A stretch of 59,342 nucleotides of DNA, filler included. It is 7 parts of 7 records of this genome, joined end to end, with 100 filler letters (N's around TTAATTAATTAA, not from the genome) between each part and the next. Parts side by side here need not be neighbours in the genome. Positions count along the whole stretch, not along the records: positions 50,432 to 59,342 come from SRR31147125_6016; 6 more parts are not named here. One strand, 5' to 3'. Numbering within the stretch: position 1 is the stretch's first letter; each line of letters opens with the position of its first letter. Below are positions 36,685 through 59,342 of this stretch, piece by piece. Below the pieces are notes generated by a model, which was not told where the DNA came from, did not search any database, and was given only the letters and a program-made list of their open reading frames with translations. The position numbers and the translations under genes were made by a program.

Positions 36685-37714
36685 GTGGAGAATAAAGTGA
36701 ATAAAAGAACTCTTATTTTAACCACTATCCTCATTAGTCTTCTGATCAGCTTTTACAACCTGTCCGCCCAGGATAAACGTCCAATGACCCTCATAGATCT
36801 TCTTGAGGTGCCCTATCTGGACGATCCTCAACTCTCTCCGGATGGTCAGCAAGTTCTATACAGACTTTCGGAAAGTAATTGGAAAGAAAACAAACAAATT
36901 GCCCATATCTGGCGAATCAATTCTGATGGAACAGACGCCATCAAATTAACCAATGGCGCCAATAGTGAAAGCAGCGCTAGATGGTCGCCGGATGGTCAAT
37001 GGATCGCTTTTCTGGCCAAACGGGATTCAGATGAAGCAAAACAGATCTATCTCATCAGCAATAAAGGAGGAGAAGCACAACAATTAAGCGACCACGAGAC
37101 AGCTGTTTCAGATATAACCTGGTCGCAGGATGGTTTGTTTATTTATTTTCTCGCCAAAGAAGCGGAAACCAAAGAGGAAAAAGAACGAAAAGAAGCAAAA
37201 GATGATGTCTTTCCATTTGATGAAGATTATAAACAACAGCATCTGTGGAAAATATCCGTAACAAAAAAAACAGAACACCGAATCACAGAGGGACATTATT
37301 CCATCTCTAGCTACCATCTTTCACGAGATGGACAAAACATTGCCTTTCATAGAGCACCCACGCCTCTTTATGATGATTCGGATGAAGCAGAAGTATGGGT
37401 TATGAACAGCTCCGGTGAAAATACCAAACAGCTGACAAAAAACACTGTCGGAGAAGCGTTTGCTCAATTATCACCGGATAATTCACGTGTTTTGTTTGTC
37501 GCCGCATCCAATAAAGAGTTCGAACCCTATTATAATGAAAACCTGTTCATTGTTCCGGCCTCGGGTGGAGATCCTGAACTGGTTTTTCCGGATTTTCCTT
37601 ATGAAATACACAACGCGAGCTGGGGACAGGATAATCATTCGATCTTTTTGATTGCCAATATGGGTGTCCATAGTGAATTATTTCAGATCAATTTAAAGGA
37701 TAAAACGTACAAAC
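36685..37714 (+). CDS. S9-family peptidase N-terminal beta-propeller (PD40 repeats), 3'-truncated
   Basis: Signal peptide and repeated 'SPDG' blades; catalytic domain lies beyond the contig end. Confidence 0.75.
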
Positions 37715-37814
37715 NNNNNNNNNNNNNNNNNNNNNNNNNNNNNNNNNNNNNNNNNNNNTTAATTAATTAANNNNNNNNNNNNNNNNNNNNNNNNNNNNNN
37801 NNNNNNNNNNNNNN
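37715..37814. other. Artificial contig spacer
   Basis: N44-TTAATTAATTAA-N44. Confidence 0.99.
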
Positions 37815-38771
37815 AAAAATCGGATGAGAGTTCTTCAACCAATACATTGCCAAGACGAGAATAAATCTCGGCGACCCGTTGATATCTAACCGGATTGACC
37901 TCTCCAAGGGGAACCAAATCCGGAGCGATCAATCCTCTGCTCATCTCCGCTTCCAGCCTTAAATTCTCCCGATTCAAGGTGGGGGCATACTTTTCGATGA
38001 TCAGATCGATGATCTCTTCCGGGTATGTCAACGCGTAATCCCAGCCTTTGATCGTGGCGCGTCTAACCCGTTCCGCGCGACCGGGAAACCGTTTCAGCTC
38101 CCATTCCGTTGTAAAGAGGTTGTCTCCGTAAAAATTTACTCCATAATTTTGGGGGGTGATGATATTGATGTTCATTCCAAATCGTTTTGTTAGGTCAAAT
38201 AAATTGGTTAAATATGTTTCAATTACGTCTGCATCTCCTGTCAAAAAACTCTCAAGAGTTCTTCTTTGAGGGATAATTGTAACTTTATCTAAATCCCCCA
38301 GGGTATTGAGCAGCATGGCTGTCAAAATAATGTTGTCTCTTCCCGTCATTACTGTTTTTCCGATAAAATCGATAGGGGAGTGAATCCCCGAGCCTTCCTT
38401 ACTGATGTAAATCGATTGAGAATGCTGAAATATTTGCGCAACCAACACAACGGGATCTCCATTCAATCGATGGGATATCAGCTGGGAGTTTGAGATCCCG
38501 TATTCGGCTTCCCCTTTCAGTACACTTTGAACGGATTTTGTTCCACCATTGCGTGGAATCAATCGAACATCGAGTCCCTCATCTTTGTAAAACCCTTTTT
38601 CTTTTGCCGCATAGTATCCGGCAAACTGAAATTGGTGGTTCCATTTTAGTCTGATGGATATGGTCTCAAGATCTTTCGATGCAAAAAGGGGGAGGTATGC
38701 ATGACCCCAAAAAAGGTTAAGAGTGTAATAGTAAACCAGATCATAGTGATCGGTCGAAAAATGATACTCAT
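37815..38771 (-). CDS. NMT1/THI5-like solute-binding domain protein (probably the sensor part of a signalling protein), 3'-truncated
   Basis: 'LKWNHQFQFAGYYAA', 'FYGDNLFT', 'GWDYA'; hydrophobic N-terminus from ATG 38771 joins via a T-run slip near 38710. Confidence 0.75.
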
Positions 38772-39446
38772 AAGTCTTTTCAGAATGGGGTTCGAACCTC
38801 TTTGGGAATAGCATATCCGGCGGCTATTTGGAAAATTCATGAGTGACCTGTAAGTTAAATTTTTAAACGCACTAAAACTCAATCTTAATTCAAAGCCTTT
38901 AAATTGGTTTCATGGATATAAATTAAAACAAAAAATGGAGAACATTCGTTTACCACTTTCGAGTTTGAGGCTTTCGACATTTTTGTCGAAATAATGCAGT
39001 TTTTGTCGATATTTGGAATATACAGCCGTCATATCTTTCACGGGGGAATGTCGATTCAGGTCATGGTCTCCGTCATCCAATGGTGTTTTTCAGAGTATGA
39101 ATCGAAATGTCGGGTAGCAAACACCCAAACAGCTTTACATTGTTTTAATGACGATCATTTAATACCACATAATATTATTTTTTGCTACTTTAATAAATGG
39201 CATAAATAATGCATAATTTCAGCACCATGAGATGATATCCCAAGATATTCAATTTGATCGATTCGATATCAAATTTTCTGAATAGACAAATAGAGAACAG
39301 AAGGAGGTTGAAATGGTGCATCAGGATTCAAAAGAAACTAGAAAAGAATTGTTGAAACAAAAATTAAAAGGAACAATTTTCACAGACAGGGAAGAGATTC
39401 GGAAAAATAGGCCCTATAATCTCACATCCAAAGGGATACGCTAGGC

Positions 39447-42936: not shown

Positions 42937-43036
42937 NNNNNNNNNNNNNNNNNNNNNNNNNNNNNNNNNNNNNNNNNNNNTTAATTAATTAANNNNNNNN
43001 NNNNNNNNNNNNNNNNNNNNNNNNNNNNNNNNNNNN
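42937..43036. other. Artificial contig spacer
   Basis: N44-TTAATTAATTAA-N44. Confidence 0.99.
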
Positions 43037-44126: not shown

Positions 44127-44207
44127 TATTCTTCTCCTTTTATATTCTCTCATTTATGAGTACCCATATTCTTATAAATACGTTTAGGTACACACCGGAA
44201 AAACAGA

Positions 44208-46343
44208 TTATCGAATGATAACCAGTTTACCAGTACCTACCTGACCGGATAAAGGTCCCTGAGTAACTTCGATGGTGTAAAAGTAAACACCGGAAGCAGG
44301 GAATTGATTATCGTCAGTGATTATTGGCCACCATCTTTCGTTGGCACTACCAGTTGTGTGATTCAATTCTTTGATCTCATCACCAACAGAATTGTAAATT
44401 TTGATGGTACAATACTCGGGCAAATTGACAAATGCTACCGTGTTTTGGTCCCGTAAATCTCCATCATAATTATAACCGGTAGAATTATGTGGCTGATCAC
44501 TTTTGTAGGTATTACCGCGTATGTTAATGGGATTTGGCACAACACGTACCTGATCGGCCCAGTCAGAAGCCTGAGTACCTCGTGCGAATGGCACAACTGC
44601 TTTATTAACCCGATTAAAGAAATGCGAGCTTTCCAGGTCATTGCCATCGACGGCTGTCACGTAATAATAGTAGTTAAAGTTTTTCGTCACATCTTCATCT
44701 ACATAGGACGTTCCAGTGGTTTCGGTAATCATGTTATAAACACGACCATTATCCACACCACCAACAGCGCGATAGACGCGGTACAGGTTGGCGCCGCTCA
44801 CAGTTTCCCATTCAATTGTATTGATTTCAGGTCCGCTTGTAGCAGACATGTTTGGCGGATCCGGAGGAAAGGGAGCAGACAGGTTTTTATTGAAATAGAG
44901 ATCTTTACCTTTTTCAAATTGAGCAAACAGGTCATCACGACCGTCTTCATAGATTTCCTGTTTTGCTGTAGCCAGGTCCATATTCCCGTCTTTTACAGCT
45001 TTACCGAGTTCTATGGCCCGTGCCTCATCGATGGAGCCCACAGCATAACAGTAGACAAGCTTTATAGATTCACCAGAGGCCAGATTGTATGGTCCGACAC
45101 CAAAGATGGGATCCCAGTGAGGTTGGGATTTTTCCTGAGGAGCATAAGGTGTGTCACCCCAGCCCGTCATGTACATATCTTTACCATCTGCGCCGGTCAT
45201 CCAGTTCCAGGCTTCGGCTAATTTTTTATCAGCCACAGGGCTGAGATGATCGTCGTAATTTACATAACGAAACGTGGCTGGCTGATCCGGATTGTCAGCT
45301 GATGGTTCCGCACCATTGGAGATGTACAGAAAAGCAAATCCACATACTTCAGGAGCTGTGAATTCACCAGTCGGCAATTCAGCAACACCCGAGCCAATGG
45401 GGCCACCACGAGGATCAAACTGATCATCACCTTCAATATCAGCAGCATCGCCGTCCCAGGTCCAGTAATAACGTTGGACCGGATCGTATTCCAGGAGCCA
45501 GTCTGCTATACCATCGTACTGCTCGAATGAACCAAAATCCAGATAAGATTGAACACCGGCAATCTGGTGTTTGACACCGATCCAGAGATTTTCCAGAGAC
45601 TGACCTGGTTTTTCAATGCCATCGAGCATCATGTTTACATCACCAGAGTTGGTAATGGTGGTTTCAACGATGATTATTTTCTCATAATCCGGATTTGTCC
45701 AGGCATACCATTTGTCGTTGAAAGTAAGACCTAATGGATGAGTCCATTGGGCTTCCAGCATACCGTCGGTTACAAGATCCGGATTGATGGAGTAAGAGTT
45801 GCCGCTTGGATCAAAAGCCACAGGCTGTTGCGCGGCATCATCTATTTTAACGACAGGCATATCGACGCGGCGATAATGTTTGGTCGGAACAAAGTCCGGG
45901 TCCGGTGTATCGATGAGTGAACTCAATGTGACCGGGCCATTATCGGAAATAAACATATCATAATGACCAGCATCAAAAAGAGCTTCGATACCATCAGGAC
46001 CCCAGTTGCCGGCAGGGGAATCCCAATTTTGGGCTCCAGCCCACCAGGAACACTGGCCGACCAATGTTTTGCCGTGACGTTCAATATTTGTTTCATTATT
46101 AATATCCACACCATGATATCCCAGATCATTTTCATAGGATGGCCATGGTTGCCAGTTCATGGCTAATGAAACAGGCATTTGACCATCGGATGTTGTACTG
46201 GACATCCAGTGTGCACCCTGTTTATCTTGTCCCATTTGCAGTCGACCCACGGTTAAGGACCTCCAGTCCTGGGCCTGTGCATTTGACAAAAAGATCAGGG
46301 CAGTCATTGCTATCATAATGGTTAGACGCAAAAGCTTTTTCAC
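44208..46343 (-). CDS. Secreted protein with FN3-like domain and T9SS-like C-terminal Ig domain
   Basis: GTG after GAAGGAGG; signal peptide; 'YRVYRA..YYYVTAVD'; 'VRVVPNP..IKIYNSVG..ASGVYFY..GKLVIIR'. Confidence 0.7.
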   Translation of the reverse strand: MKKLLRLTIMIAMTALIFLSNAQAQDWRSLTVGRLQMGQDKQGAHWMSSTTSDGQMPVSLAMNWQPWPSYENDLGYHGVDINNETNIERHGKTLVGQCSWWAGAQNWDSPAGNWGPDGIEALFDAGHYDMFISDNGPVTLSSLIDTPDPDFVPTKHYRRVDMPVVKIDDAAQQPVAFDPSGNSYSINPDLVTDGMLEAQWTHPLGLTFNDKWYAWTNPDYEKIIIVETTITNSGDVNMMLDGIEKPGQSLENLWIGVKHQIAGVQSYLDFGSFEQYDGIADWLLEYDPVQRYYWTWDGDAADIEGDDQFDPRGGPIGSGVAELPTGEFTAPEVCGFAFLYISNGAEPSADNPDQPATFRYVNYDDHLSPVADKKLAEAWNWMTGADGKDMYMTGWGDTPYAPQEKSQPHWDPIFGVGPYNLASGESIKLVYCYAVGSIDEARAIELGKAVKDGNMDLATAKQEIYEDGRDDLFAQFEKGKDLYFNKNLSAPFPPDPPNMSATSGPEINTIEWETVSGANLYRVYRAVGGVDNGRVYNMITETTGTSYVDEDVTKNFNYYYYVTAVDGNDLESSHFFNRVNKAVVPFARGTQASDWADQVRVVPNPINIRGNTYKSDQPHNSTGYNYDGDLRDQNTVAFVNLPEYCTIKIYNSVGDEIKELNHTTGSANERWWPIITDDNQFPASGVYFYTIEVTQGPLSGQVGTGKLVIIR

Positions 46344-46438
46344 AGCTTTGCCCTCCTTCATTGTATTCATGTCCATTTAATAAACATAATTATCGAACAC
46401 TAATCTCAAAACTCGTTTTTCAGGTTTAACATGTGTTC

Positions 46439-49400
46439 CTAAAAGAACAGTCGTAAACCAAACCAATAATCACGAGGTGCGCCCCAGAACATATAAAGAC
46501 GTTGTGGCATGAGATTCGGGTCGTCTGTTTCATCACCGCGTTTTTTGCCTTCAGTTTCAATGGCTTCCATATAGGCGCGCTCGTAAGCACTGGAATTACC
46601 GCGGTCCTGACGAGATGTCAAGCTGCTCCAGCTGGTGGTATTGAGATTCTTGACGTTAAACAAGTTTGTAATCTCCATAAAAGCACTTGCTGAGATACCG
46701 GCAAACTGGAAGCGTTTTTCCAGGTGCATGGTGGTCCAGTTGTAATTTTTGTTGCGACTATTATATTGACCACTGAGACTTTGCAGTCCTTCCGGATTCC
46801 AGTTGTAGGCTGAACCTTGTTTCCAGGTATGCTGGAAATCCAGCTGCCACCAACCTAACAGCTTTGCGCCACCAAAAATGGAGCCAGGGCCCCAATCCTG
46901 AGGTGTATGCAACGAAAGTTTGGCTTTCATGGCCCAATTACCCGGAGCTTGTTCGTTGATAAAAGGATCTTTAACAACATCAAGATAGCTCACATAGGTT
47001 GGATCTTTAATGGATTCTTCCAATTCCGGAGCGTAGAGTCGGCTCCAGCCATAATAGGATCGTTTATTGGTTCTGTAATCCACATTGAGAAAACCGGTGA
47101 GGTACGTGCCGTATCTCTTTTCAAGCTGGACTTCAAGACCTTTGGTATCATAGGCCAGAGAATTGAGAGCATATTCCGGATCATCATTACCACGGGCATT
47201 GATATTGACTTCATCAAGACCGTCAGTAACGTCTTTATAATAACCACGAATATTGACGACATAGTCACCATAAATACGTTGTTCATAACCAGCCTCAAAT
47301 TGAATGGTTTTGGTCATGAGCAACCATGGATTTCCGAGTTTTTCCAGAGGTTCGTCGAAACCCAACTGAAAACGGTACATGTAATCTGAAGCAGGAACAT
47401 CATAAAAGTGACCATAATTGAAAAAGATTTTGCTTTCCGGTCCTATTGGATGGGAAATACCAAATCGCGGACTAAATTTGACCTGCAGATCCGGAGTTGT
47501 TTCTGCTGCTAATCCATAATGTCCGGGATCTGGTGCATATTCGCCGTATTTTTTCCAGTGATCATCATAATAGGATGCATTGCTGGGCATATACATGTCA
47601 TTGTAATCATACCAGGATTTATTCGGTTTATGCAGATCCATACGTACACCTAAATTCAGGATCATGCCACCGAATTCCATACGATCCTGGACATAAGCGG
47701 CACCTTGCCAGGGATAGACATGAATATCATGCCAGTTGGCCTGGTCACCGGTACTACCGTCATCTTCTGTTCCAAAAATACCATCCGCTCCATTGCGGTA
47801 AGATTCATTGGTGAGGAACAGGTAATTCTGGGTGTATCCGCGTTGTTCTTTCAGGTCTTTATAGGTCCACTCAAATCCACCTTTAAGTTGATGGTGAACG
47901 TTGATCTGGCTGGTGATATCCGCAGCAACGCGAAAAGCTTTTGTGTAACTAAAATCGATTTCGCGAGAATCACGCAGGTTGTAAATATTCAGGATATCTG
48001 AACCCGGGCCTGTTTTGTAAGACCAGCCTTTTGGTCCTTCATCAAGTGAAATACCACCGACTGTATAAACAGTCCCATATTCTCTTTCACGAACATTGGG
48101 AACCTGGTTTACATCGATGTTGGTATTTTGCAGTTTTACTTCATAAAAGGTGCTTGGACTTAGAGTGTGAGTCCATGTAGCATTCAGGAAGCCGTACCAT
48201 TGGCCACGAGGAATCATTCTGGAATCCATGTTGTAGATTCTTCTATTATCAGTCCATTGGTCTCTCGCACCTTCCAGAGTTTGACCGGTTACACCATTCA
48301 TTGGTCCCGGGTCACCACGGCTAAAGTTGCGCATATCGGTATAGATACCGTTCAAGGTTAACTTCATGTCCTGGTTAAAGTTGAACAACAACTTGGCCTG
48401 TGTGGTGTTGTATCTGTTTGTGGCATTGTTAGGTGTAAAGAAGGGATACTGTGAGTATTCATTCAAATGAGACAAAACGAAACCGACCTTGCCGTTTGTA
48501 AAAGGCACAGGTCCGCCAAAGGTAAAATCCGCATTATAATCAGGATCGAAACTATACCAGTTAACAGCGTCCTGGTGTGTAGACGGAAGTTGATAAAGAC
48601 CATCGACTGTTCCGAATTCCTCACCATTATAATAGATGTTACCTTCATCATCTTCAGAACGGTGCTGCCATTGCCAGACCTGGAATGCCTCATAACCACT
48701 GATTGTCTGATCGCTGATGGTGTTGTTAGCTGCCCAGGAGTTCCAACCTTCAAAATCCGCGACGCCGTCACCATTTTTATCAGCAGCAGGATTACCGTTA
48801 TTATAGGCATAACGGCCATATTCCCACCAGTTATCATTACTGTAAACATAATCGCCAAAATGTTTCAATCCTGGAAAATCAGAATCATCACCACCCATAA
48901 GTGGACTGATACGACCTTCAAAATTGAAGAAATATTTTTGGCGAGGGGATTTGGTTACAACATTAACGATACCGGCACGAGCGTTACCAAATTCAGCATT
49001 AAAGGAACCAGTCAGTAACTGGATTTCCGAGATGGCTGTTTTACTAACGCGTGTCATGTCACGGTCCATACGTTCATCACGCATGCTCATGCCGTCAACA
49101 TAATAACCGATTTCCGTATTATTACTACCACGAATGGTAATACCCTGAGCGTCCTGATCAACGCCAACCTGGCTTGACAGAACATCATCGAGACGAAACG
49201 TGGCAGGTATAGATTCGATGGATTCTGTACTCAGGTTTGTTTGTGTGTATGAAACGTCCTGTCGGACGATTTCTCTTTCAGCTGTTACGGTTACTTCTTC
49301 ACCAGCAATTACTTCCTGACCGAGCTTAAAATCGATGGTGGTGGTTCTATCAATTCTGACGACCACATCCAGAACGACTTCCTCAGTATAACCAATAAAG

Positions 49401-49642
49401 TTGGCCCGGAGCTTGTAATTTCCAGGAGCAACATTAATTATGAAGTAATTGCCATCAATGTCTGATGACGCACCCATCATCGTGCCTTCGATCTGAATAT
49501 TTGCGCCAGGTAAAGCTTCGCCGGTTTTTGAATCTTTAACAACACCCGCTATTTTTCCGGTTGTTGCGGCAAAACTTGTTCCCAGCCATAATAATGTCAG
49601 AGCTATGAACAAGATGGGGCTAAATACAGCTCTTTTAAACAT
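46439..49642 (-). CDS. TonB-dependent receptor with N-terminal carboxypeptidase-regulatory-like domain
   Basis: 'GKIAGVVKD..GEALPGANI', plug 'IRGS..YYVDG', 'FNAEFGNA', 'SPRFGISHPI', 'NLFN', C-terminal aromatic residue. Confidence 0.92.
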   Translation of the reverse strand: MFKRAVFSPILFIALTLLWLGTSFAATTGKIAGVVKDSKTGEALPGANIQIEGTMMGASSDIDGNYFIINVAPGNYKLRANFIGYTEEVVLDVVVRIDRTTTIDFKLGQEVIAGEEVTVTAEREIVRQDVSYTQTNLSTESIESIPATFRLDDVLSSQVGVDQDAQGITIRGSNNTEIGYYVDGMSMRDERMDRDMTRVSKTAISEIQLLTGSFNAEFGNARAGIVNVVTKSPRQKYFFNFEGRISPLMGGDDSDFPGLKHFGDYVYSNDNWWEYGRYAYNNGNPAADKNGDGVADFEGWNSWAANNTISDQTISGYEAFQVWQWQHRSEDDEGNIYYNGEEFGTVDGLYQLPSTHQDAVNWYSFDPDYNADFTFGGPVPFTNGKVGFVLSHLNEYSQYPFFTPNNATNRYNTTQAKLLFNFNQDMKLTLNGIYTDMRNFSRGDPGPMNGVTGQTLEGARDQWTDNRRIYNMDSRMIPRGQWYGFLNATWTHTLSPSTFYEVKLQNTNIDVNQVPNVREREYGTVYTVGGISLDEGPKGWSYKTGPGSDILNIYNLRDSREIDFSYTKAFRVAADITSQINVHHQLKGGFEWTYKDLKEQRGYTQNYLFLTNESYRNGADGIFGTEDDGSTGDQANWHDIHVYPWQGAAYVQDRMEFGGMILNLGVRMDLHKPNKSWYDYNDMYMPSNASYYDDHWKKYGEYAPDPGHYGLAAETTPDLQVKFSPRFGISHPIGPESKIFFNYGHFYDVPASDYMYRFQLGFDEPLEKLGNPWLLMTKTIQFEAGYEQRIYGDYVVNIRGYYKDVTDGLDEVNINARGNDDPEYALNSLAYDTKGLEVQLEKRYGTYLTGFLNVDYRTNKRSYYGWSRLYAPELEESIKDPTYVSYLDVVKDPFINEQAPGNWAMKAKLSLHTPQDWGPGSIFGGAKLLGWWQLDFQHTWKQGSAYNWNPEGLQSLSGQYNSRNKNYNWTTMHLEKRFQFAGISASAFMEITNLFNVKNLNTTSWSSLTSRQDRGNSSAYERAYMEAIETEGKKRGDETDDPNLMPQRLYMFWGAPRDYWFGLRLFF

Positions 49643-50031
49643 GGATTGTCCTCCTCTATCCAAATTTAAAGTGGCAGGAAAACACAATTAATAATATTGA
49701 TTTAATAATGGACTAGTATGCGTTTCCAATAAAACACATTCGCTTACAATAATTAGTTGCTTAATGTCAATGACTTTTCCGCAGGCGCCTCCTTTCTGTG
49801 ATCAATATTATTGGTTTTTGTTATTTAATTTGTCTTAGGGCATGCACTTCCTCCTTGTTTTATTATTGGATTCTAAAAATGTTTATAGGGTATTAATTAT
49901 TAGTTTATCTTTTTTTTATACATCTTCAATTCAACCAGATATCCGTATCCATTTTAAACGGATCTATAAATAAATATAAATGTATAATTATAACATAAAT
50001 AAATAATTAGATTAAATGAGTATTTAATTAA

Positions 50032-50331: not shown

Positions 50332-50431
50332 NNNNNNNNNNNNNNNNNNNNNNNNNNNNNNNNNNNNNNNNNNNNTTAATTAATTAANNNNNNNNNNNNN
50401 NNNNNNNNNNNNNNNNNNNNNNNNNNNNNNN
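50332..50431. other. Artificial contig spacer
   Basis: N44-TTAATTAATTAA-N44. Confidence 0.99.
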
Positions 50432-50531
50432 TACATTTACGTTCAATTAATGGTCGATTTTAGCCAATTTTTGACCATTTCGGCCAATATTGTAGCGAAC
50501 TTGGATTAATACTATTTAGTCTTGAAGAGTT

Positions 50532-51317
50532 CTATCTTACTAATAACATCGACCTGCTTATAGCTAAATCGCCGGACGTGAGAGTGTAAATATATAAACC
50601 TGAAGGGACTTCATTCCCTTTACTATCTTTACCATCCCAAACTATCTTGTATTTTCCGGATTCTAAATAATCCTTCGCTAAAAACATTACAAGTTGCCCC
50701 TGAATATTGAAGACACTTAACGAAATTGTTTTTTGCCCTCCTGTCGGGATTTCAAATATGATGTTAGTTTGAGGATTGAAAGGATTAGGATAATTCTGAT
50801 GTAATTTAAAAACTTTTGGCAAAGGTCTGTCTTGAGAAATACCGGTTGGAAAGTCAATAGTGAATTTCCCATTGTGGGTGGTTGCTGCAGGATCTCCAGC
50901 ATTGAATACAAAACTATCAAATATTAACGCTGTGGTATCACTTGGTTTTCCAACAATATCAAAGAGCAAGTTGACTAATGAACCAACACCACTCAATGGT
51001 GATGTGCCAAAACCTCCCACACTGATCTTGCCAATCTCAGAGGTATTTACAGTCGGGGGGCCAAAAGTGCGAGACAAAGTACCTGAACTAGAAGCACCCG
51101 CAACCTCCAATACATTTTCGTCAAAAGTGACAACTGCCTGATAGGCAATCACATTTTTATCCGTAAGATCACTAACTACAATAGGTATGGTTATCGAAGT
51201 ACCGGAGGTTCCAGTAGTATCACTCGGCAATCTAACATCAATGACTTGCGAAAAGGCAAGATTGATATTCATAGTCGATAATAACCAGAACAATAGAATT
51301 ATTCTTGATATATTCAT
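50532..51317 (-). CDS. Secreted cohesin + FlgD-Ig/T9SS-type CTD protein
   Basis: Signal peptide; cohesin-like 'ITIPIVV..VTFDENVL..GSLVNLLFDI'; CTD 'QNYPNPFNP..WDG..SGLYIY'. Confidence 0.75.
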   Translation of the reverse strand: MNISRIILLFWLLSTMNINLAFSQVIDVRLPSDTTGTSGTSITIPIVVSDLTDKNVIAYQAVVTFDENVLEVAGASSSGTLSRTFGPPTVNTSEIGKISVGGFGTSPLSGVGSLVNLLFDIVGKPSDTTALIFDSFVFNAGDPAATTHNGKFTIDFPTGISQDRPLPKVFKLHQNYPNPFNPQTNIIFEIPTGGQKTISLSVFNIQGQLVMFLAKDYLESGKYKIVWDGKDSKGNEVPSGLYIYTLTSGDLAISRSMLLVR

Positions 51318-51360
51318 TTTTATACACATCTCCCAATACAATGTGATTTATTACAAATCA

Positions 51361-52401
51361 TCAATGTAAAAGTAACATTTTTCGCGATACCTTGAATGTC
51401 CCGACTTTTAATTCATATATATATACTCCTGAAGCCACTTGTACATTCTGATTGTCCAAACCATTCCATTTTATCCTGTGTTGACTGGCATCCAGAGTAT
51501 CGTCAATTAATAATTTAATCTCTACTCCATTCATACTAAAGATCGTCAATAACACCTTTGCAGGATAGGCAATACGAAATTCAATCAACGTTTCAGGATT
51601 GAATGGATTAGGATAATTCTGTGATAAAACAACATCGTTGGGTACATTTATTTCAACCTTTATTTTCTCCGAGTGCTTGAAAGTTCCATCATAATCAATT
51701 TGCTTGAGACGATAATAAACTATTCCAGATTGAAAATTTTGATCCTGAAATTCATAACTCTGTGGTTCGCTCGTCGTTCCTTTTCCAGGTATGAAACCTA
51801 TTTTTCTAAATGTATTTCCATCCATACTTTTCTGAATTTCAAATCCAAAGTTGGTGAATTCAGTTTCGGTTTTCCACTTCAAACGTACAGAAGATCCAAC
51901 CAATTGAGCTGAGAATAGGCTAAGTTCTACGGGAACGGGTGTTTGGATTACAGTTAATTTACCTCTAGTAACTTCAGCTGCAGGATTACCACTATTGAAT
52001 GCGAACGATGAAAAATTTAAATCAGTGCTTTCTAAAGGTAAACCAACGACACGGAATTGTAAAAATACCAAAGTTCCGCTACCACTTAATACATCTGTAC
52101 CAAATCCAGCAATTGCGATAAGGCCATTCTGCTGCGTGTTTACAGTTGGGGCACCAAACGAACCTGAAAGGGTTCCCATACTAGTAGCCCCTATTGCATC
52201 TAAAACGCTTTCATCAAAACTTACTTCGGTTTGATAGGAGATTACTGCACTTCCTGTGAGATCCCCAACTTCAATTGGAATTAAAATCGTTAATCCCGCC
52301 TCTCCTGTAGTATCTGGAATTGTAACTTCAATCGAAAAAAGAGGGATATAATATGTAAAGATAAAAATCAAGCTCAATGTCATTGTTTTAATGACGTTCA
52401 T
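51361..52401 (-). CDS. Secreted cohesin + PVEL beta-domain + FlgD-Ig/T9SS-type CTD protein
   Basis: Signal peptide; cohesin-like module; 'PVELSLF..YYRLKQID'; 'QNYPNPFNP..WNG..SGVYIY'. Confidence 0.75.
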   Translation of the reverse strand: MNVIKTMTLSLIFIFTYYIPLFSIEVTIPDTTGEAGLTILIPIEVGDLTGSAVISYQTEVSFDESVLDAIGATSMGTLSGSFGAPTVNTQQNGLIAIAGFGTDVLSGSGTLVFLQFRVVGLPLESTDLNFSSFAFNSGNPAAEVTRGKLTVIQTPVPVELSLFSAQLVGSSVRLKWKTETEFTNFGFEIQKSMDGNTFRKIGFIPGKGTTSEPQSYEFQDQNFQSGIVYYRLKQIDYDGTFKHSEKIKVEINVPNDVVLSQNYPNPFNPETLIEFRIAYPAKVLLTIFSMNGVEIKLLIDDTLDASQHRIKWNGLDNQNVQVASGVYIYELKVGTFKVSRKMLLLH

Positions 52402-52414
52402 GACTTGGCCTCAT

Positions 52415-55400
52415 TCATTTTAAAAATATCATTTTTTTTGAAGCGATAAACTCTCCAACGACTAATTTATAGAGATAAATTCCTGAAGCTATTGGTTGTC
52501 CGGTCTCATTTCGACCATCCCATTGAATCTCATATGAGCCAGGGGGGCGTTCTTCATCCAATAATATGCGCACTAACTTTCCATTGGCGTTATATATCGA
52601 AAGATGTGTCTTCAGCTTCTCACCATCCACCTTAGGAATATCAAATCTGATCGTGGTGCTTGGATTAAATGGATTTGGATAGTTCTGACTCAACGCAAAC
52701 TGTGTTGGAAATTTAGAGGAGCTATCTACGATAACCTTCGTGACTGAACGTTTCGCAGGATTCCCATTCAATTGATAGCGCTTAAAAGTTAGAAAGGTCT
52801 GCGATTTTTCTTCTCCAATAACTTCAAACTGCAACAAAAGCAGCGTGCCTCCTTCCTTGACTGGCTCAGTTGCAAACGCTCCAACTTTAAGTCTACCGTT
52901 CTTTGAATTGCTAAAGAGCTCCAGGTTCTCACTTAGACCTGTCTTGGTGACTCCTAAAAAGTTTAAAACTGCAGAATCGTACTCGAGCTCCATATCGATT
53001 GAGAAAAGAGAGACGCCATTTTCAATTTCTAGCGGTAAACTGATAATTTCACCAGGGTTCACGATCTTATCACAATGATTCGCATGACGACTGATCGCCA
53101 CTCTTTTGGCGGTTGTTGGAGTTATCCAATTACCATCTACATCACCTAAAAGTGTAGCTCCGTAGAATTGTTCCGTTGCATTTTCACTCAATGCTGTATA
53201 GGTCCGTCTCCTAGGGTCAAAACGCCATTGCCCGGTTTGTTGTTTCTCATTCAGTGGTGGCAGGCCGACGGCATAGCGGCAAATTAAAGCAGCATCAAAG
53301 GCAAAAATGTAGCCATCCTCATCCACATCTGCCGCTTTTTGTTGCTCTGGTGTAAATGAGATGAGACCAACAGAATGTTTTGCAGTCAGAGCGGCATCAA
53401 AACATGTGACGCAATCATCCTCGAAGTCACCGGATTTGGAAGGAACAACCGTGTAGTTGAGTCCGCCTTGGAGTTTTCCGAACTGATATTTGCCATTTTG
53501 ATCAGTGCTAAGGTTTGTTGACATCCCTCCGGATAAACCCAAAGTCACGTTTGGTACGGGACTATCTGTGATGTCGTATGTAACACTCCCTTCGATAAAT
53601 AAGTTACCTGAACCCATCACTTGAAATGAACTGCAAGGATTTGGTATAGCAACTGCAGGCTCCCCAGAGTTAAAAGATACACTTTGAATACATAAATCTG
53701 TAGCGTCACCCGGATTACCGATAACATCAAAAATTAAACCAATGAACTTTCCACTACCAGACAGCGGCTGAGTTCCAAAACCTCCAATTGTTATTTCACC
53801 GCCGATATCGGAATTCACGGTCGGTTCGCCAAAAGTTTTCGATACTGTCCCATTGCTGATTGCACCAACAGCATCCAGAACATTTTCATCGAATGTCACA
53901 ACCATCTGATATGAGACGATGTTTTGACTAGTCAGATCATTTATAAAAACATATAGTGTGTCACGTGCACCTGGAGCATTATTCAATTGAGGTTCACTCC
54001 AGCTTAAATTTAATTCATCTGTAGGACTGCCATCAGATACAGTGAGTGTTACAGGTACAGTAAGCGGAGAATCATCCGGATCGTTACTAAAAATGACCAT
54101 ATTTAATTCATAATCTCCTGAATTCAAGTCTGTCGCATCAAAGTTTGCGGAGATATCTATATTGTTGCCTGCATATATGGTACCCTTGAAAGGTTCGAGG
54201 GATAGCCAACCTACAGTCTGAGTAATTACATTATATAAAAATTGTTTATCTGAGTTGGTTCCTGATTCATGTTCGGGTAAACCTGTATGAAATATTCGAT
54301 TACCATTGACAATTAATGCTGTTTTGCTATTATCCGAAATGCCGACCAGTGTTCCGGTAGTGATGACTCCAGCTGTCCATGTTCCATTGTGAGGAATCAA
54401 GGTCTCATCTTGCCAGCCGCTGGCATATGGTTCAAAAATATTTCGCAATATGGGGTGTTCTGGTACTTCAAAGTTGATCGCACTCCCATATGTGTCATTA
54501 CCCCAGAAGTAGGTCTCGCTTACACTTAGACCTACCAATGGAGCTAAAAAATCAACATGCGGCTGCAATTCGGGAAACCCGCCATTATTAAATGTACCTC
54601 CAGATATGTACAAACCTGCGCCTTCGTTCACATATTGAGCAATGGCCATGGCTTCTGTTGGAGAAAAAGGACCATACTCATGCATAGGATTCCAGTTATT
54701 CGTGATAATGATAACGTCTGCTCCGTTTTCTGCTAATGCCTCATATGTGATATCAATTGCATGAAAAGTCGAGTAATCAATCAAGATCTCTTTATCACCG
54801 TATGCAGACCAGCTCGCATTAAGCTCATCCCAAAGGAAACTGCTCCTGGCTGTCGTACCAATGCCGTCAAGAACCACAGCATAGATTGTCTCAGTGATAG
54901 AGGAAAAGCTCTGTTGACGCTTGGCCAGGATCTCCTCCGCACCCACCTGTGATATTACACTGGAGACGTTGTTAGCGTTTTCTATTGCCAATGGTAGGAT
55001 TGACTGGGCTACTTGTTCATTTGCTCGGAGAATTTGAAGCATCCAGTCAACGTTTCGTTCTCCCATATTATTTAATTCTATGGATTTTGATAGATTAGCG
55101 CTCGAATTACCTGTGCCGTCTATCGATATATCAAAGGACAGGGTTCCTTCTCCTGTATTGCTGATTGTAAAGGGCCGAGTCGCTGTTGCACCGATTGGCA
55201 ATGTTTCGACAATATCACCGCGGATAAGGGTAATATTGGGTGGACCCGAGGTTGTCCCGGTTGGAGAATTTGACACTGTTGACTGATTACCCCATCTGTC
55301 TAGAACCTTCAAGGCAAAGTGATAAGTTGTGTTAACATCTAATCCTGTCACGGTGTACGATTCTGCAGAACCATTTTCGTGTGGTTTCGGTTCACCTTGC

Positions 55401-56902
55401 ACTGTATTAGCCGACTCGAAATTCGCTTCGTTAATTGGAAATAATGCATATCGGATATCATAAGAAGCAGCCATACGGGACGGATTGTCATCACCACTAG
55501 CGGTCCAGGCAAGGGTTATGGAATTTGATGTAGAGCTGGTAGTTACTAAATCCGTGACAGCATTTGGTGGGATTGTATCTGGTCCTGCCAAGGCATAAAA
55601 AGCATTCAGTCTACCACCTGTAACCGTTCTTCCTTCTAATGCTTGATTCGGATCTACAGAATTCATAATTCTTTGCTTGATCTCAGATCCAGTCATGCCT
55701 GGATTTTGAGACCATATTAGAGCAGCTACACCAGCCACATGAGGTGTTGCCATGGAGGTTCCGCTGAGAGATGCGTACCTATTTCCACGAATTGTGCTAT
55801 AAATGTTCGAACCTGGAGCCCCCAAGTCAACTGATGTTAGCCCAAAATTGGAAAAGGAAGATTTTGCATCATTATGCGTAGTGGCTGCAATCGAGATGAT
55901 ATTATCCAATTCATAATCAGATGGATAATGGTGTAACACATCATTATTTATGCCGTCGTTTCCACAAGCTGCCATGAACAGCATTCCCGCAGCTTCTGAT
56001 GCTGCTATCGCATCCAACAATGCTTGGGAAAATGCATCACCACCCCAACTATTGCTGGTTAATTTTGCTCCCATCATGGTGGCATATTCTATGGCCAATA
56101 TCGCATTTGAAACAGCGCCTCCACCGCTACTCCCCAAAAACTTTAGAGGTATAATTTTAGCCGACCAACACACACCAACCACACCGATACCATTATTCCC
56201 AACAGCAGCAATGGTTCCAGATACATGTGTACCATGACCATTGTCATCCATGGGATCGTTGTCCCCATTAATAAAATCCCATCCTCGAACGTCGTCCACG
56301 TAACCATTGCCATCATCATCAACACCATTATCCGGAATCTCTCCCGGATTTTTCCATATGTTCTCAGCCAGGTCTTCATGGAGCCAATCTACACCAGTAT
56401 CGATTACTCCAACCAACACATCAGTTCCGGTTTGAATTTCCCAGGCTTCAGGTGCATCGATATCTGCATCAAGCATTCCTCCTGTTTGACCAGTATTATC
56501 AAGTCCCCATAGTTGCGAAACGTTTGGATCATTTGGAATAGCATTTATCACTGAGACTAAATAGTTTGGCTCGATGTATTCAATTTGTGGGTCACTCTTA
56601 TATAGGTTAACCGCCTCATCTACAGTAACATTGGAGATTTCCCAAAGCTCGGCATCAATTATTTGCAATTTTTTGATAACTGAGGCATTGAGATTTGCTC
56701 TCATTGTCACAATGTTACTCTGTAGGTTACCTTCCTTGAATTTGACAATGAGTTGATTTTCAACATGGTCGATACTGGGTTGTGTTTGAACATCGAATAC
56801 AATAACGAGCAGAAGAAGAACTGGAAGTTTGGCAGTTATCGTTCTGCAGTTCAAGGCACTTGAACGAAAAAGTTGATAAATATTGTACATGTTATAATTC
56901 AC
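52415..56902 (-). CDS. Multidomain subtilisin (S8) protease with FN3, cohesin x2, dockerin and FlgD-Ig/T9SS-type CTD
   Basis: Catalytic triad 'VIDTG', 'HGTHVSG', 'GTSMATPH'; duplicated dockerin-like 'FDAAL' helices with 'ADVDEDG'; CTD 'QNYPNPFNP'; exact start uncertain. Confidence 0.88.
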   Translation of the reverse strand: MNYNMYNIYQLFRSSALNCRTITAKLPVLLLLVIVFDVQTQPSIDHVENQLIVKFKEGNLQSNIVTMRANLNASVIKKLQIIDAELWEISNVTVDEAVNLYKSDPQIEYIEPNYLVSVINAIPNDPNVSQLWGLDNTGQTGGMLDADIDAPEAWEIQTGTDVLVGVIDTGVDWLHEDLAENIWKNPGEIPDNGVDDDGNGYVDDVRGWDFINGDNDPMDDNGHGTHVSGTIAAVGNNGIGVVGVCWSAKIIPLKFLGSSGGGAVSNAILAIEYATMMGAKLTSNSWGGDAFSQALLDAIAASEAAGMLFMAACGNDGINNDVLHHYPSDYELDNIISIAATTHNDAKSSFSNFGLTSVDLGAPGSNIYSTIRGNRYASLSGTSMATPHVAGVAALIWSQNPGMTGSEIKQRIMNSVDPNQALEGRTVTGGRLNAFYALAGPDTIPPNAVTDLVTTSSTSNSITLAWTASGDDNPSRMAASYDIRYALFPINEANFESANTVQGEPKPHENGSAESYTVTGLDVNTTYHFALKVLDRWGNQSTVSNSPTGTTSGPPNITLIRGDIVETLPIGATATRPFTISNTGEGTLSFDISIDGTGNSSANLSKSIELNNMGERNVDWMLQILRANEQVAQSILPLAIENANNVSSVISQVGAEEILAKRQQSFSSITETIYAVVLDGIGTTARSSFLWDELNASWSAYGDKEILIDYSTFHAIDITYEALAENGADVIIITNNWNPMHEYGPFSPTEAMAIAQYVNEGAGLYISGGTFNNGGFPELQPHVDFLAPLVGLSVSETYFWGNDTYGSAINFEVPEHPILRNIFEPYASGWQDETLIPHNGTWTAGVITTGTLVGISDNSKTALIVNGNRIFHTGLPEHESGTNSDKQFLYNVITQTVGWLSLEPFKGTIYAGNNIDISANFDATDLNSGDYELNMVIFSNDPDDSPLTVPVTLTVSDGSPTDELNLSWSEPQLNNAPGARDTLYVFINDLTSQNIVSYQMVVTFDENVLDAVGAISNGTVSKTFGEPTVNSDIGGEITIGGFGTQPLSGSGKFIGLIFDVIGNPGDATDLCIQSVSFNSGEPAVAIPNPCSSFQVMGSGNLFIEGSVTYDITDSPVPNVTLGLSGGMSTNLSTDQNGKYQFGKLQGGLNYTVVPSKSGDFEDDCVTCFDAALTAKHSVGLISFTPEQQKAADVDEDGYIFAFDAALICRYAVGLPPLNEKQQTGQWRFDPRRRTYTALSENATEQFYGATLLGDVDGNWITPTTAKRVAISRHANHCDKIVNPGEIISLPLEIENGVSLFSIDMELEYDSAVLNFLGVTKTGLSENLELFSNSKNGRLKVGAFATEPVKEGGTLLLLQFEVIGEEKSQTFLTFKRYQLNGNPAKRSVTKVIVDSSSKFPTQFALSQNYPNPFNPSTTIRFDIPKVDGEKLKTHLSIYNANGKLVRILLDEERPPGSYEIQWDGRNETGQPIASGIYLYKLVVGEFIASKKMIFLK

Positions 56903-57135
56903 CTATTTATAATTAGTCAGTTACTCATTGACCGAAAACAGTCCTTTCTCTATTCTCAGTACCTAATCATTTTATTCTAATTTAATTAATTAGTCAAAAA
57001 CTCGCGCACTAAAATGCCAAGGGTAATCTCTCGAAAGTACCGCAGATTATCGCCGACAAAAACAATAACTTTTATAAAATTAAAAGTAAAAGACATGTTT
57101 TTTCTAAAAGACCTTCTCATAACAAAGCTGTTCCA

Positions 57136-57151
57136 TACAAAAACCGTGCCT
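57136..57151 (-). promoter_or_regulatory. Sigma54-like -24/-12 element upstream of the protease/cohesin operon
   Basis: AGGCACGGTTTTTGTA (GGCAC-N5-TTGT). Confidence 0.35.
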
Positions 57152-57193
57152 TTCCCTGCAAACATTAGGCTGTAATGTGTAGTCCATACCTAA

Positions 57194-59084
57194 GGGCCTG
57201 CTCAAAAATTAATTATAATTATTGATTCATAATTGTATCACAATTAAAGAGCGAGGTCATAAGATATTGTCATAACATATTGGTTTTAAAGCAAATAATT
57301 TTCTTGACTTTGACCGTAATATATGATACATTTATGAATTAATGTCCTATCGTTCATAAATGTGCCAAAGATAATGAAAAGCTCAAAAGATTCAAATAAA
57401 AATCTCATTCTTGCTTTTAATACAAAAAAGCTTCTAACCATTTATGAAATTAAAAGCATTATAAATTCAAACTCGCGAATGACTGCGCATCGCCATTTGT
57501 GTCGTCTGGATTACAATACAAGTTATTCCCACGCCGGTCGTTATTACACATTGCACTCAATAGCCAAATACAATCGTTTGGGATTATGGCGCTTTAACGG
57601 CGTTTATTTTTCAAAACACGGTTCTCTTTCGTCTACCATTGAAAAATTCGTCAATAATTCGGAACAAGGTTGTTTTGCTTCGGAACTGCGAAAAATTTTA
57701 AAAGTCTTTGTTCATAATGAGCTTTACAACTTGTTCCTGAAGGGGAAAATTTATAGAGAACAAATTGGGAATGAGTTCCTTTACATATCTCCTGTTTACA
57801 GTAACGTCCAGCTCGACAACAGAAAATCGCTCATACAAGCGTCGGTCAAAGAAGATTTAAAACAATATGCTTATAAAGCCGATCATATTGAATATTTAAA
57901 AATGTTTTTATCTATTTTAAACGAGAAGCAACGCCGTTTATTTTTAGGATTTGAATCCTTAAAACTCGGTTATGGCGGCGATACGATTATTTCAAAAAAA
58001 GCGGAGTGGGCATTCGCGCCATAAGTAAAGGTCGCAAAGAATTGCTTTCTCATAATATCGTTCCGGATCGAATTCGGAGTAAAGGCGGCGGCCGGCCGTC
58101 CATAAAAAAACTTAAATACTCGTTGAGATTGAGAAAATTATAGAAAACGACAAGGCCAGTTCGCCCGTTCAAAATCAAAAATGGACGAGAAAAAGCGCGT
58201 GCAATATCAGGAAAAGTCTAAAAGGAAAAAATACTTTCATATGCCCGAACACAACTGGCTCAATCCTTAAATTGCTGAATTATTCGTTAAAAGCGACTCG
58301 CAAGACCGTGTCGGAAACATCGCATTCTAACCGAAACGAACAATTCGAATACGTTGCCGACTTGAAAAGCCATTTTGTTGTTTTACTTCAACTGATTTTA
58401 AGCGTCGACAGGAAAAAGAAAGAGCTTGTCGGTAATTTTAAAAACAGCGGTAGAAAATGGTCAAAAGAATATGGTCATGTCTTAAATCACGACATTCGGT
58501 CAAAGGCCGTTGGAATAGCTAACCCGTATGGAATATACGATCTAACCGAAAACTATGGTTTTATTGTTATTGGAACATCCTGCGACACGGCGGAATTCGC
58601 CGGAGAAACAATTGAAAATTGGTTAGTTATGTACGATTTAAAGCGTTATAAGAATTTACAGAAAATACTTATTCTTTGCGATTCGGAAGGAAGCAATGAT
58701 TACCGAGTTCGGTTATGGAGATACGTGTTATATTGTATGCTTTCATGTAAATATAATATTTCCGTTACCGTTTGCCATTATCCCTCGGGCGCTTCAAAAT
58801 GGAATCCGCTTGATCATCGATTGTTCAGCTTTATAACCATAAATTGGGCCGTCGTGCCTTTGAGATCCTATGAAACAATGCTAAAATGCATTCGTCAAAT
58901 GACAAATAGTAAAGGCTTAAAAGTGAACGCCATTTTGAATAAAAAAGATTACGCCAAAGGCGCAAAAGTAACAAACGATCCAATGAAATCGATTAGTATC
59001 AGAGAACATAGCATACTTCATAAATGGAACTATACAATTGGTCCAAATTAAATAAAGAATTGCATTTTATTTTTGAGCAGGCCC
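57194..59084 (+). mobile_element. ISAzo13-family insertion sequence (1891 bp)
   Basis: 16-bp perfect TIRs GGGCCTGCTCAAAAAT (57194-57209 and 59069-59084), flanked by TAA direct repeats (57191-57193, 59085-59087). Confidence 0.88.
57362..59051 (+). pseudogene. ISAzo13-family (Rhodopirellula-type DDE) transposase, frameshifted/degenerate
   Basis: 'LNEKQRRLF', 'GGGRPS', 'SVDRKKKELVGNFKN', 'HYPSGASKWNPLDHRLFS', 'WNYTI'; frame breaks at A7 57994-58000 and A7 58104-58110. Confidence 0.8.
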
Positions 59085-59342
59085 TAAGTCAGTTCGTATG
59101 TTACATTTTTTAAAACTAGTATAACTTAGCTGCACCCAACTTAGATAGATTTCTCACTTGAAGAGTACAAAATTGAAATTGCGAAATTCAAAATGGAAAT
59201 AATTTCGATTACTTGCTGAATATCATCAAAGTGAGTGTCATCAACACAGCTGTTTTTAAAATTGCTAACTGAACTATTTGTTATTTTGAACATGTTACAT
59301 TGGCAAAACTATTTTAGGTAGCGTATAATTAACTGTTGCTAT

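Follow-up and report, generated by a model that had tools for sequence, protein, structure and literature searches.

What do cohesin and dockerin modules do on proteins that carry the sorting signals of a type IX secretion system (T9SS)? Cohesin-dockerin assembly is textbook knowledge for the cellulosomes of Gram-positive bacteria, and to our knowledge the surface organisation of T9SS cargo in diderm bacteria is poorly understood. The question is raised by three minus-strand genes, here called A, B and C, at positions 50,532 to 56,902 of a 59,342-nucleotide stretch of DNA (the window). Gene A encodes a putative secreted protease whose tail holds two cohesins (Coh1 and Coh2), a dockerin and a T9SS C-terminal domain (CTD), and B and C encode small proteins with one cohesin and one CTD each. 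One dockerin and four cohesins in three genes make this locus a compact test case for whether T9SS cargo is cross-linked by cohesin-dockerin pairs.

Our best explanation is a tentative one, held with a little less than even confidence: the cluster, a real and conserved feature, would be an operon for three T9SS cargo proteins, and the dockerin of the protease would engage, in trans and at the cell surface, a socket of the cohesin type common to B, C and Coh1, which we name CohBC. Domain identities, folds, gene order and the T9SS parts of related genomes are the observed basis; from these we infer the following sequence, its export, CTD processing and anchoring by analogy with the Bacteroidota, and with it the binding and the choice of partner. 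A, B and C would cross the inner membrane via Sec and the outer membrane via the T9SS; PorU would cleave their CTDs, and a PorU/PorV/PorZ complex would attach them to the surface. The dockerin of the protease would then dock in trans with a cohesin, the likeliest socket being one of the CohBC type on B or C, so that the protease would be part of a cross-linked patch rich in cohesins and not an isolated molecule. The main support for this reading is a synteny that does not depend on which enzyme head the dockerin is attached to.

Cohesins and a nested dockerin in the A-B-C cluster

The three genes are co-directional and as tightly packed as the preliminary description of this DNA had claimed, with gaps of 13 nt between A and B and of 19 nt between B and C. 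All three lie within one N-free segment (50432-59342), which they share only with two ORFs upstream on the other strand. As a whole, the window is a pseudomolecule in which seven contigs are stitched at six N44-TTAATTAATTAA-N44 joints (9814-9913, 19263-19362, 26582-26681, 37715-37814, 42937-43036 and 50332-50431), so adjacency across a joint has no meaning. This stitching, and one segment of outlying base composition, are what could make the cluster an assembly or annotation artefact, such as a chimeric contig or a set of chance open reading frames (ORFs). The single N-free segment and the strong profile matches of A, B and C speak against such an artefact, and the same gene order in two independent assemblies (L078 and L104) effectively refutes it; we regard it as scarcely credible. 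A search of public runs with sampled words of the window gave one DNA run matching throughout, a further point against an artefact, though this run is possibly the source sample itself; no RNA run was listed among the matches.

Each protein ends in a CTD, as had been described. The TIGR04183 model (T9SS type A sorting domain, cut-off 23) matches the extreme C-terminus of all three, with 30.0 bits in A and the scores given in Table 1 for B and C, and the motifs QNYPNPFNP, WDG/WNG and SGxYxY are present in the translations. Hydrophobic N-termini are found in A, B and C, judged by eye from the translations, which agrees with the N-terminal signals described earlier for B and C. The closest genomes belong to the KSB1 phylum and support a diderm, KSB1-like host, in line with the earlier assignment to a bacterium of the FCB (Fibrobacterota-Chlorobiota-Bacteroidota)/KSB1 kind. 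In five related KSB1 genomes (G061, G155, G136, G129 and G001), SprA, PorU and PorV exceeded curated cut-offs in 5/5 and PorZ in 4/5, making export and CTD processing plausible; surface anchoring of A, B and C would follow by analogy with the Bacteroidota.

The four cohesins had been proposed from the letters alone and are borne out. The Pfam Cohesin family (PF00963; gathering threshold, GA, 24.1) matches all of them above GA, with 62.4 bits in two stretches of A and the scores listed in Table 1 for B and C. Coh1 shares 43-46% of its residues with the B and C cohesins, and identities across all three are 43-55%, as for paralogues; Coh2 is only 25% identical to Coh1. In comparisons with the sequences of the Protein Data Bank (PDB), a phmmer search with Coh2 found 2xdh_A ('COHESIN') at E 1.5e-4, and the CohBC profile found 3ul4_A, deposited as 'Cellulosome-anchoring protein', at E 1.1e-3. 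An AlphaFold2 (AF2) model of A residues 940-1495 (556 residues, 32 aligned sequences) had a mean pLDDT of 87.2 and a pTM of 0.61; both cohesin regions were all-beta with pLDDT mostly >90, the Coh1 sandwich occupying model residues 25-146. The top 15 Foldseek matches of this tail include the cohesins 4fl4, 3kcp, 2w1n and 3l8q, in a ranking that is noisy for a multi-domain query. All four modules are thus cohesins, those of B and C by profile and by 43-46% identity to the modelled Coh1. The description of B and C as essentially a cohesin plus CTD holds for C; B has about 110 additional residues (150-266) that gave no Pfam match at E<=1.

The dockerin required more care. Pfam Dockerin_1 (PF00404) matches A residues 1162-1210 (nt 53273-53419), inside the interval of about 53260-53440 where the dockerin had been placed, with 21.0 bits, just under the GA of 22.9; CarboxypepD_reg matches residues 1103-1158 with 24.4 bits, under its GA of 32.3. 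In the profile check suggested earlier, the cohesins thus exceed the Pfam threshold and the dockerin of A falls just short of it. Among relatives, Dockerin_1 is above GA in the G061 orthologue (27.8), L110 (26.8), L121 (35.5) and L125 (28.7), and below it also in L078 (22.3) and L079 (18.8). A profile of the conserved unit around the dockerin (the Doc unit), compared with PDB sequences, matched 9qf9_A (Ruminococcus bromii Amy16) at 7.7e-5, 4uyp_B (ScaB) at 4.6e-4 and 4fl4_A (Clostridium thermocellum GH9) at 1e-3, with the CelS and XynY dockerins matching more weakly; its N-terminal part matches SusC/TonB N-terminal domains. Because the profile matches solved dockerins and relatives exceed the Pfam GA, we accept the element, from its sequence, as a diverged nested dockerin.

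The term nested refers to its structural setting. The AF2 model of A residues 1096-1264 (26 sequences; pLDDT 94.1, pTM 0.87) runs from strands (6-60) through three helices (72-82, 90-96 and 106-116) back to strands (131-156). VIA-align against 48,161 chains gave Z 9-10.7 to transthyretin-like, CarboxypepD_reg and CnaB sandwiches over about 85 residues, in alignments spanning model residues ~4-158. From this order of secondary structure and these alignment ranges, rather than from coordinates, the dockerin helices appear to form an insertion within a single beta-sandwich. The tail of A had been described as a beta-sandwich followed by a dockerin between two cohesins; the cohesins and the identity of the dockerin stand, and the two successive domains become one unit, in which the dockerin is internal and nested rather than a free-standing terminal module. 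The best Foldseek match of the Doc-unit model was 5k39_B, an X-Doc (E 7.6e-4), with poor geometry (TM 0.30-0.33, rmsd 11 A).

In the 26-sequence alignment, repeat 2 of the dockerin has a canonical calcium loop, A-A-D-V-D/N-x-D-G-x-I-x-x-Y/F-D-A-A-L (DVDEDG...D in A), with D97 nearly invariant and D108 invariant, and a conserved W.F.P...LLGDVDGNW stretch forms the closing strands of the model. One could argue that there is no cohesin-dockerin binding at all: the modules would be stalks, spacers, or calcium-stabilised or glycan-binding elements, and their clustering would reflect paralogue expansion and co-regulation. An atypical dockerin (sub-threshold, with a non-canonical first loop and a buried insertion) and the distance of both cohesin types from solved cohesins (E ~1e-3 to 1e-4) are what this explanation would expect, but no part of the tail is better conserved across all heads than the dockerin helices with the second calcium loop, a pattern that suggests an interaction surface under selection. 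We consider a non-binding role decidedly unlikely, and return below to the gene neighbourhoods that bear on it.

The Doc-Coh2-CTD cassette and its gene neighbourhoods

The cluster had been described as built around a secreted protease, and this proved too narrow, as the same pair of modules occurs with other heads too, FG-GAP, GH88 and SBBP-propeller among them. With A residues 940-1400 as the query, 34 proteins were retrieved; one (P0121) is an orthologue with an S8 head, and the remainder carry the tail on Peptidase_C1, C25, M4, FG-GAP/VCBS, PKD and beta-helix heads. Among 1.84 billion representatives, 775 proteins matched a profile at E<=1e-30; this number is an upper bound, since proteins rich in CarboxypepD_reg repeats score too. 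When the best 150 of these 775 were mapped with custom domain hidden Markov models (HMMs), 101 contained a Doc unit, with 121 Doc units in total; among these 101 proteins a CTD was found in 79, CohBC in cis in 17 and an S8 head in 4. Doc unit, Coh2 and CTD thus read, from sequence, as a shuffled cassette on many enzyme heads. In S8-type tails, Coh1-type cohesins stand directly before the Doc unit.

Conservation of the three-gene order had been a prediction, and it was found, within narrow limits. A contig scan keyed on the CTD motif QNYPNPFN gave 681 confirmed stretches, mostly of unrelated CTD proteins, of which only three (L007, L071 and L016) extend into a cohesin. A cohesin-only alignment against metagenome contigs gave two loci. 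L078 repeats the A-B-C order, with an S8 tail protein of 1548 aa followed by proteins of 356 and 261 aa; in L079, an apiosidase-like glycoside hydrolase (GH)/FG-GAP protein with the Doc-Coh2-CTD tail is followed directly by a 257-aa cohesin-CTD gene. The exact three-gene order was identical in one other lineage, that of L078 and L104/G061, which are >90% identical to each other. Orthologues of A are accordingly found in L078, L104 and P0121 (1649 aa), and the counterpart of B has 356 aa in L104 as in L078. Seven homologues of C align over its full length at 43-54% identity, and a few others are more distant; the remaining ~500 matches cover the CTD only. In L104 (11745-16341; G061:C65) the protease is present as two overlapping ORFs, one of 1072 aa with the S8 domain and the middle region and one of 467 aa with the tail, through a frameshift, an assembly error or a real split.

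We then examined 167 genomes of the phylum of G001 (candidate division KSB1). A CohBC match (E<=1e-15) was present in 65 and a Doc unit (E<=1e-30) in 63; both occurred in 41, CohBC only in 24, Doc only in 22 and neither in 80, an odds ratio of 6.2 that ignores phylogeny and the incompleteness of metagenome-assembled genomes (MAGs).

The gene neighbourhoods were assessed in two samples. The first comprised the segment with the cluster, L078, L079, L090, L091 and 20 hand-picked neighbourhoods, 19 of them picked for a cohesin in small open frames and one (L123, G052:C5) for a multi-cohesin frame. It contained 22 loci with a small or contig-cut CohBC gene; with L122 left out as unassessable and L078/L104 counted once, 20 assessable distinct lineages remained, <70% identical to each other and including the studied cluster. 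In 15/20 a Doc-cassette gene is followed immediately, in the same direction, by a small CohBC-CTD gene. These Doc genes have as their heads S8 (only in the studied cluster and L078/L104), FG-GAP, SBBP propeller, GH88, apiosidase-like GH and CarboxypepD_reg repeats; it is this independence of the head that argues for a socket in trans. The second sample comprised 20 Doc-gene loci of other KSB1 lineages, from 17 Doc-only and 3 single-Doc genomes. Here L134, L137 and L138, all from genomes counted as Doc-only, have a diverged CohBC gene immediately after the Doc gene, and L133 has one two genes away.

Two large genomes, G061 (6.0 Mb) and G155 (5.6 Mb), contain exactly one nested Doc unit each, and in both it adjoins a small cohesin gene; all three CohBC matches of G061 fall within its A-B-C-type operon. 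The idea that G061 has a single dockerin altogether was rejected, as Pfam gives two more above threshold, so that only the nested Doc unit is unique.

These neighbourhoods also bear on the absence of any binding. Loci L110-L117 are arrays of paralogous CTD proteins, and some cassette genes lie in loci of a polysaccharide-biosynthesis type, both of which would suit paralogue expansion and co-regulation; the co-occurrence of cohesin and dockerin in cassette and operon goes far beyond what would be expected of unrelated spacers, however, and neither this nor the position of the single nested Doc unit of G061 and G155 beside a small cohesin gene is readily explained without an interaction.

Several multi-cohesin CTD proteins were also seen: L091 359-3766 encodes 1136 aa with 4 CohBC, and L123 3052-9387 encodes 2112 aa with 3 CohBC and many ASH/HYDIN-type immunoglobulin-like (Ig) domains; L090 was grouped with these scaffoldin-like proteins. 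No Doc unit was found near the scaffoldin-like genes of L091, L123 and L090, nor anywhere in the genome of L123 (G052) at E<=1e-30. The triple-cassette loci L124-L126, L131 and L132 and the single-cassette loci L139-L141 have surroundings of a polysaccharide-biosynthesis type. In three loci of the first sample a hybrid sensor kinase (CHASE8-HAMP-PAS-HATPase-REC) was recorded, at L105 8325-10631, L106 5411-7708 and L108 1750-4092, which may be a regulator of such clusters.

The partner of the dockerin

A number of observations weigh against docking of the protease into B or C. Binding between cohesin and dockerin in this cluster is itself a prediction from sequence, and the T9SS of the host is read from relatives, in which GldM was found in 0/5 of the five genomes above (no positive control was detected either) and GldK only as partial matches below the cut-off. 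The protease carries its own CTD and so has no need of B or C as an anchor; indeed every partner carries its own CTD, and a scaffoldin is not required for anchoring. In the dockerin, repeat 1 keeps its helix (Y/F-D-A-A-L...V-G-L) and has a loop of variable length without DxDxDG across the 26-sequence alignment.

The synteny has its exceptions as well. In the first sample, L118 has no Doc gene, L121 has its Doc gene (with a CHB_HEX head) two genes away, and in L105, L106 and L108 the CohBC gene is cut by the contig end and has the sensor kinase directly upstream. Among the 167 genomes, 22/63 Doc genomes have no CohBC match and 24/65 CohBC genomes no Doc unit, figures to which MAG incompleteness and the chosen thresholds contribute. 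G061 contains two further Pfam dockerins above GA and one below, together with cohesins outside the operon, and B and C could therefore serve other partners. Candidate extra members of the same network are a 409-aa Coh-Doc-CTD protein adjoining a polysaccharide-biosynthesis gene (L145 3754-4983) and a 334-aa protein whose sole Pfam match is a C-terminal dockerin of 36.4 bits (L144 4109-5113); a CBM96/GDSL esterase with a CTD in G061 also gave a cohesin match in the genome search.

Most of the weight on this side comes from Coh2. A Coh2-type cohesin directly follows 98/121 Doc units in the 101 proteins found among the best 150 of 775. In L124-L126, L131 and L132 (G017, G019, G020, G036 and G035), proteins bear three tandem copies of the sandwich-Doc-Coh2 unit ahead of the CTD; these are FG-GAP/ASPIC proteins of ~1300-1530 aa. 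In the second sample, 16/20 loci have no separate cohesin gene in the examined stretch, their cassette genes lying among genes for Asn synthase, GNAT, PIG-L deacetylase and glycosyltransferases. Together, the succession of Doc and Coh2 in cis and these 16 loci make Coh2 a serious alternative partner. The dockerin would then bind the Coh2 of its own cassette, either in cis or head-to-tail between molecules, and B and C would be caps, competitors or sockets for other dockerins. All cassette genes mapped in both KSB1 samples have Doc followed by Coh2, so that this order is near-universal, and the tandem proteins, the 16 loci and the 22 genomes without a CohBC match all fit, as do the other dockerin proteins of G061, which would be available for B and C. 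The linker between Doc and Coh2 has ~20 residues with a pLDDT of ~60 in the AF2 model and, given this low value, is probably flexible. Helices 1 and 3 of the dockerin are near-duplicates, and near-duplicate dockerin helices fit dual-mode binding.

A partnership with Coh2 nevertheless leaves unexplained why a small CohBC-CTD gene follows Doc genes with any head in 15/20 lineages, and why Coh1-type cohesins stand directly before the Doc unit in S8-type tails. In known adaptor scaffoldins, moreover, the cohesin and the dockerin of one chain are usually non-cognate. We regard Coh2 as the chief alternative, a possible though doubtful partner. Two computations leave the choice undecided. A mirror-tree comparison over 14 adjacent pairs gave a Spearman r of 0.47 between Doc and its cis Coh2, 0.42 between Doc and the small cohesin and 0.39 for the control of Doc with the CTD, which does not discriminate between them and does not favour Coh2. 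Complex prediction of the cohesin of C with the sandwich-Doc unit scored 0.27 and 0.26, with 0.34 as the mark, in a job without controls or custom alignments; these values speak neither for nor against binding. Docking in trans into B or C and binding to Coh2 are not mutually exclusive.

On a broader reading, the cassette may be an enzyme-agnostic 'Velcro' that links T9SS cargo of KSB1, and probably of other FCB phyla, head-to-tail into a protein coat on the outer membrane, with B- and C-like proteins as dedicated anchors or chain caps whose genes adjoin those of their clients. We think this unlikely. If true, it would amount to a general surface-assembly system of diderms that differs from cellulosomes in architecture and in purpose, with the dockerin set in a transthyretin-like sandwich and each subunit exported on its own.

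Other features of the window and comparison with known systems

The coordinates of the cluster and its domains are collected in Table 1.

Table 1. Features of the A-B-C cluster, in positions of the window
Feature	Position	Strand	Description	Basis
Gene A	52415..56902	-	1495-aa putative pre-pro-subtilase; tail Coh1-[beta-sandwich with apparently inserted dockerin]-Coh2-T9SS CTD	ORF, Pfam, NCBIfam
Fervidolysin-type N-terminal prodomain of A	56564..56791	-	residues 38-113	PF22148 (Fervidolysin_NPro), 53.5 bits, GA 21
Peptidase S8 catalytic domain of A	55652..56428	-	residues 159-417	PF00082, 213.4 bits
fn3 domain of A	55289..55561	-	residues 448-538	PF00041, 36.8 bits, GA 25
Region of A of ~390 aa without family	54053..55225	-	residues 560-950; accompanies S8 head in orthologues	
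Coh1, CohBC-type cohesin of A	53648..54013	-	residues ~964-1085	alignment, AF2 model, CohBC HMM
Nested Doc unit of A	53111..53617	-	residues 1096-1264; transthyretin/CarboxypepD_reg-like beta-sandwich, strands flanking three dockerin helices	AF2, VIA-align
Dockerin helices of A	53258..53434	-	residues ~1157-1215	Pfam, profile vs PDB, Foldseek
Coh2, second cohesin of A	52718..53059	-	residues 1282-1395	Pfam Cohesin best stretch; alignment
T9SS type A CTD of A	52427..52681	-	residues 1408-1492	TIGR04183
Gene B	51361..52401	-	346 aa; hydrophobic N-terminus, CohBC cohesin, ~110-aa domain, CTD	ORF, Pfam, NCBIfam
Cohesin of B (CohBC)	~51952-52332	-		Pfam Cohesin, 36.2 bits
Domain of B of ~110 aa without family	51604-51954	-	residues 150-266	conserved region
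CTD of B	51373-51615	-		TIGR04183, 32.6 bits
Gene C	50532..51341	-	269 aa; hydrophobic N-terminus, CohBC cohesin, CTD	ORF, Pfam, NCBIfam
Cohesin of C (CohBC)	50889-51221	-		Pfam Cohesin, 41.4 bits
CTD of C	50553-50792	-		TIGR04183, 37.6 bits

By profile and by the Asp/His/Ser motifs in its translation (VIDTGVD, HGTHVSG and GTSMATPH), A is a putative S8 subtilase with a prodomain. Between its fn3 domain and Coh1, residues 560-901 gave no Pfam match even at E<=1, and residues 896-949 gave a weak match to HYDIN/VesB Ig domains; a custom HMM of this middle region ('MID') matches the S8 genes of L078 and L104. A protein atlas queried with the conserved regions of A (560-950) and B (150-266) gave weak leads with scores of 0.90-0.91 (Bacteroidota clusters, DUF4960).

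Directly upstream of the operon, on the opposite strand (57362-59051), lie a 220-aa ORF without assignment and a 259-aa transposase ORF, which covers positions 52-308 of the 308-position model of a Rhodopirellula-type DDE transposase (ISAZ013); from sequence, this looks like an insertion sequence element, possibly split. The segment 43037-50331 contains three co-directional genes (43062-49687). One product, of 1082 aa, resembles TonB-dependent receptors and has CarboxypepD_reg and Plug domains; another, of 722 aa, has a weakly CTD-like C-terminus; the third is PorV-like (28.3 bits, GA 27). This trio could be a separate outer-membrane uptake or secretion set; as members of the locus the three genes were rejected, since they lie on a different contig segment and, in a window stitched from contigs, are not demonstrable neighbours of the cluster. 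The segment 19363-26581 has a guanine-plus-cytosine content of 0.55, against 0.39-0.43 in the other six, and may be a mis-binned contig or foreign DNA. It holds genes for an RNase_T-domain exonuclease, an AIR-synthase-related (SelD-like) protein, selB and selA, with a tRNA-Ala(GGC) at its extreme end. ORFs that span joints (e.g., 36685..37770 and 37759..38814) have artefactual ends.

If the predicted binding is true, nesting would put the dockerin module in a new structural setting, and the small cohesin-CTD proteins would offer an orthogonal handle for surface display in T9SS bacteria. In ecological terms, KSB1 bacteria would keep proteases and glycan-active proteins at the cell surface instead of releasing them. 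In the literature available to us, which lacks most subscription journals, we found no description of a nested dockerin, of an obligate Doc-Coh2-CTD cassette, of a dedicated small cohesin-CTD gene or of a cohesin-dockerin system in KSB1.

Several known systems share parts of this design. The gingipains of Porphyromonas gingivalis are secreted proteases whose T9SS type A CTD is removed by PorU before they are attached to the surface. They resemble A as CTD-bearing secreted proteases, and homologues of PorU, PorV and PorZ are present in the related KSB1 genomes; we know of no cohesin or dockerin modules in the gingipain system. In the XDoc modules of cellulosomal scaffoldins (PDB 5k39_B and 5m0y_B), a dockerin is likewise coupled to an Ig-like beta-sandwich, but there the sandwich precedes the dockerin, whereas here the helices appear to lie between strands of one sandwich. 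The non-cellulosomal cohesin of Clostridium perfringens GH84C (2w1n) and the R. bromii amylosome (9qf9, Amy16), both of which we take to represent working cohesin-dockerin systems, show that these modules occur outside cellulose degradation, sometimes both in one protein; these systems are Gram-positive and lack T9SS CTDs, whereas A, B and C carry them.

By analogy, the closest functional counterparts of B and C are OlpA and OlpC of C. thermocellum, which combine a type I cohesin with an S-layer homology (SLH) anchor and are thought to hold dockerin enzymes directly at the surface, olpA lying in the scaffoldin operon (PMC4045903). They differ in that the SLH anchor attaches to a Gram-positive wall and the enzymes they serve are cellulases whose type I dockerins are terminal, whereas B and C carry T9SS CTDs on a putative diderm.

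The nearest precedent as a whole is Ca. Stygibacter (Cloacimonadota), for which a cellulosome-like complex, proposed to act on polypeptides and polysaccharides, was inferred from sequence only (Williams et al. 2021, PMC8542988). The idea of a partly proteolytic cohesin-dockerin complex that a CTD anchors to an FCB bacterium has therefore already been published. Ca. Stygibacter too is an FCB diderm; its dockerins are borne by S8/S53 and C25 peptidases and by GHs, and it has a CTD-bearing cohesin protein for attachment to its own surface. Our operon has the same defining combination of a dockerin on a putatively secreted peptidase and a cohesin protein with a T9SS CTD. By Pfam, it holds neither a carbohydrate-binding module (CBM) nor a GH, and B and C are single-cohesin proteins, so that the operon falls outside a strict definition of the cellulosome. 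The enzymes of Ca. Stygibacter carry their dockerins at the C-terminus, and a single scaffoldin of 3755 aa combines tandem cohesins with CBM2/CBM3 (PMC8542988), whereas the cluster studied here has no CBM and pairs an enzyme that carries two cohesins, a sandwich-nested dockerin and its own CTD with two single-cohesin proteins encoded in the same operon.

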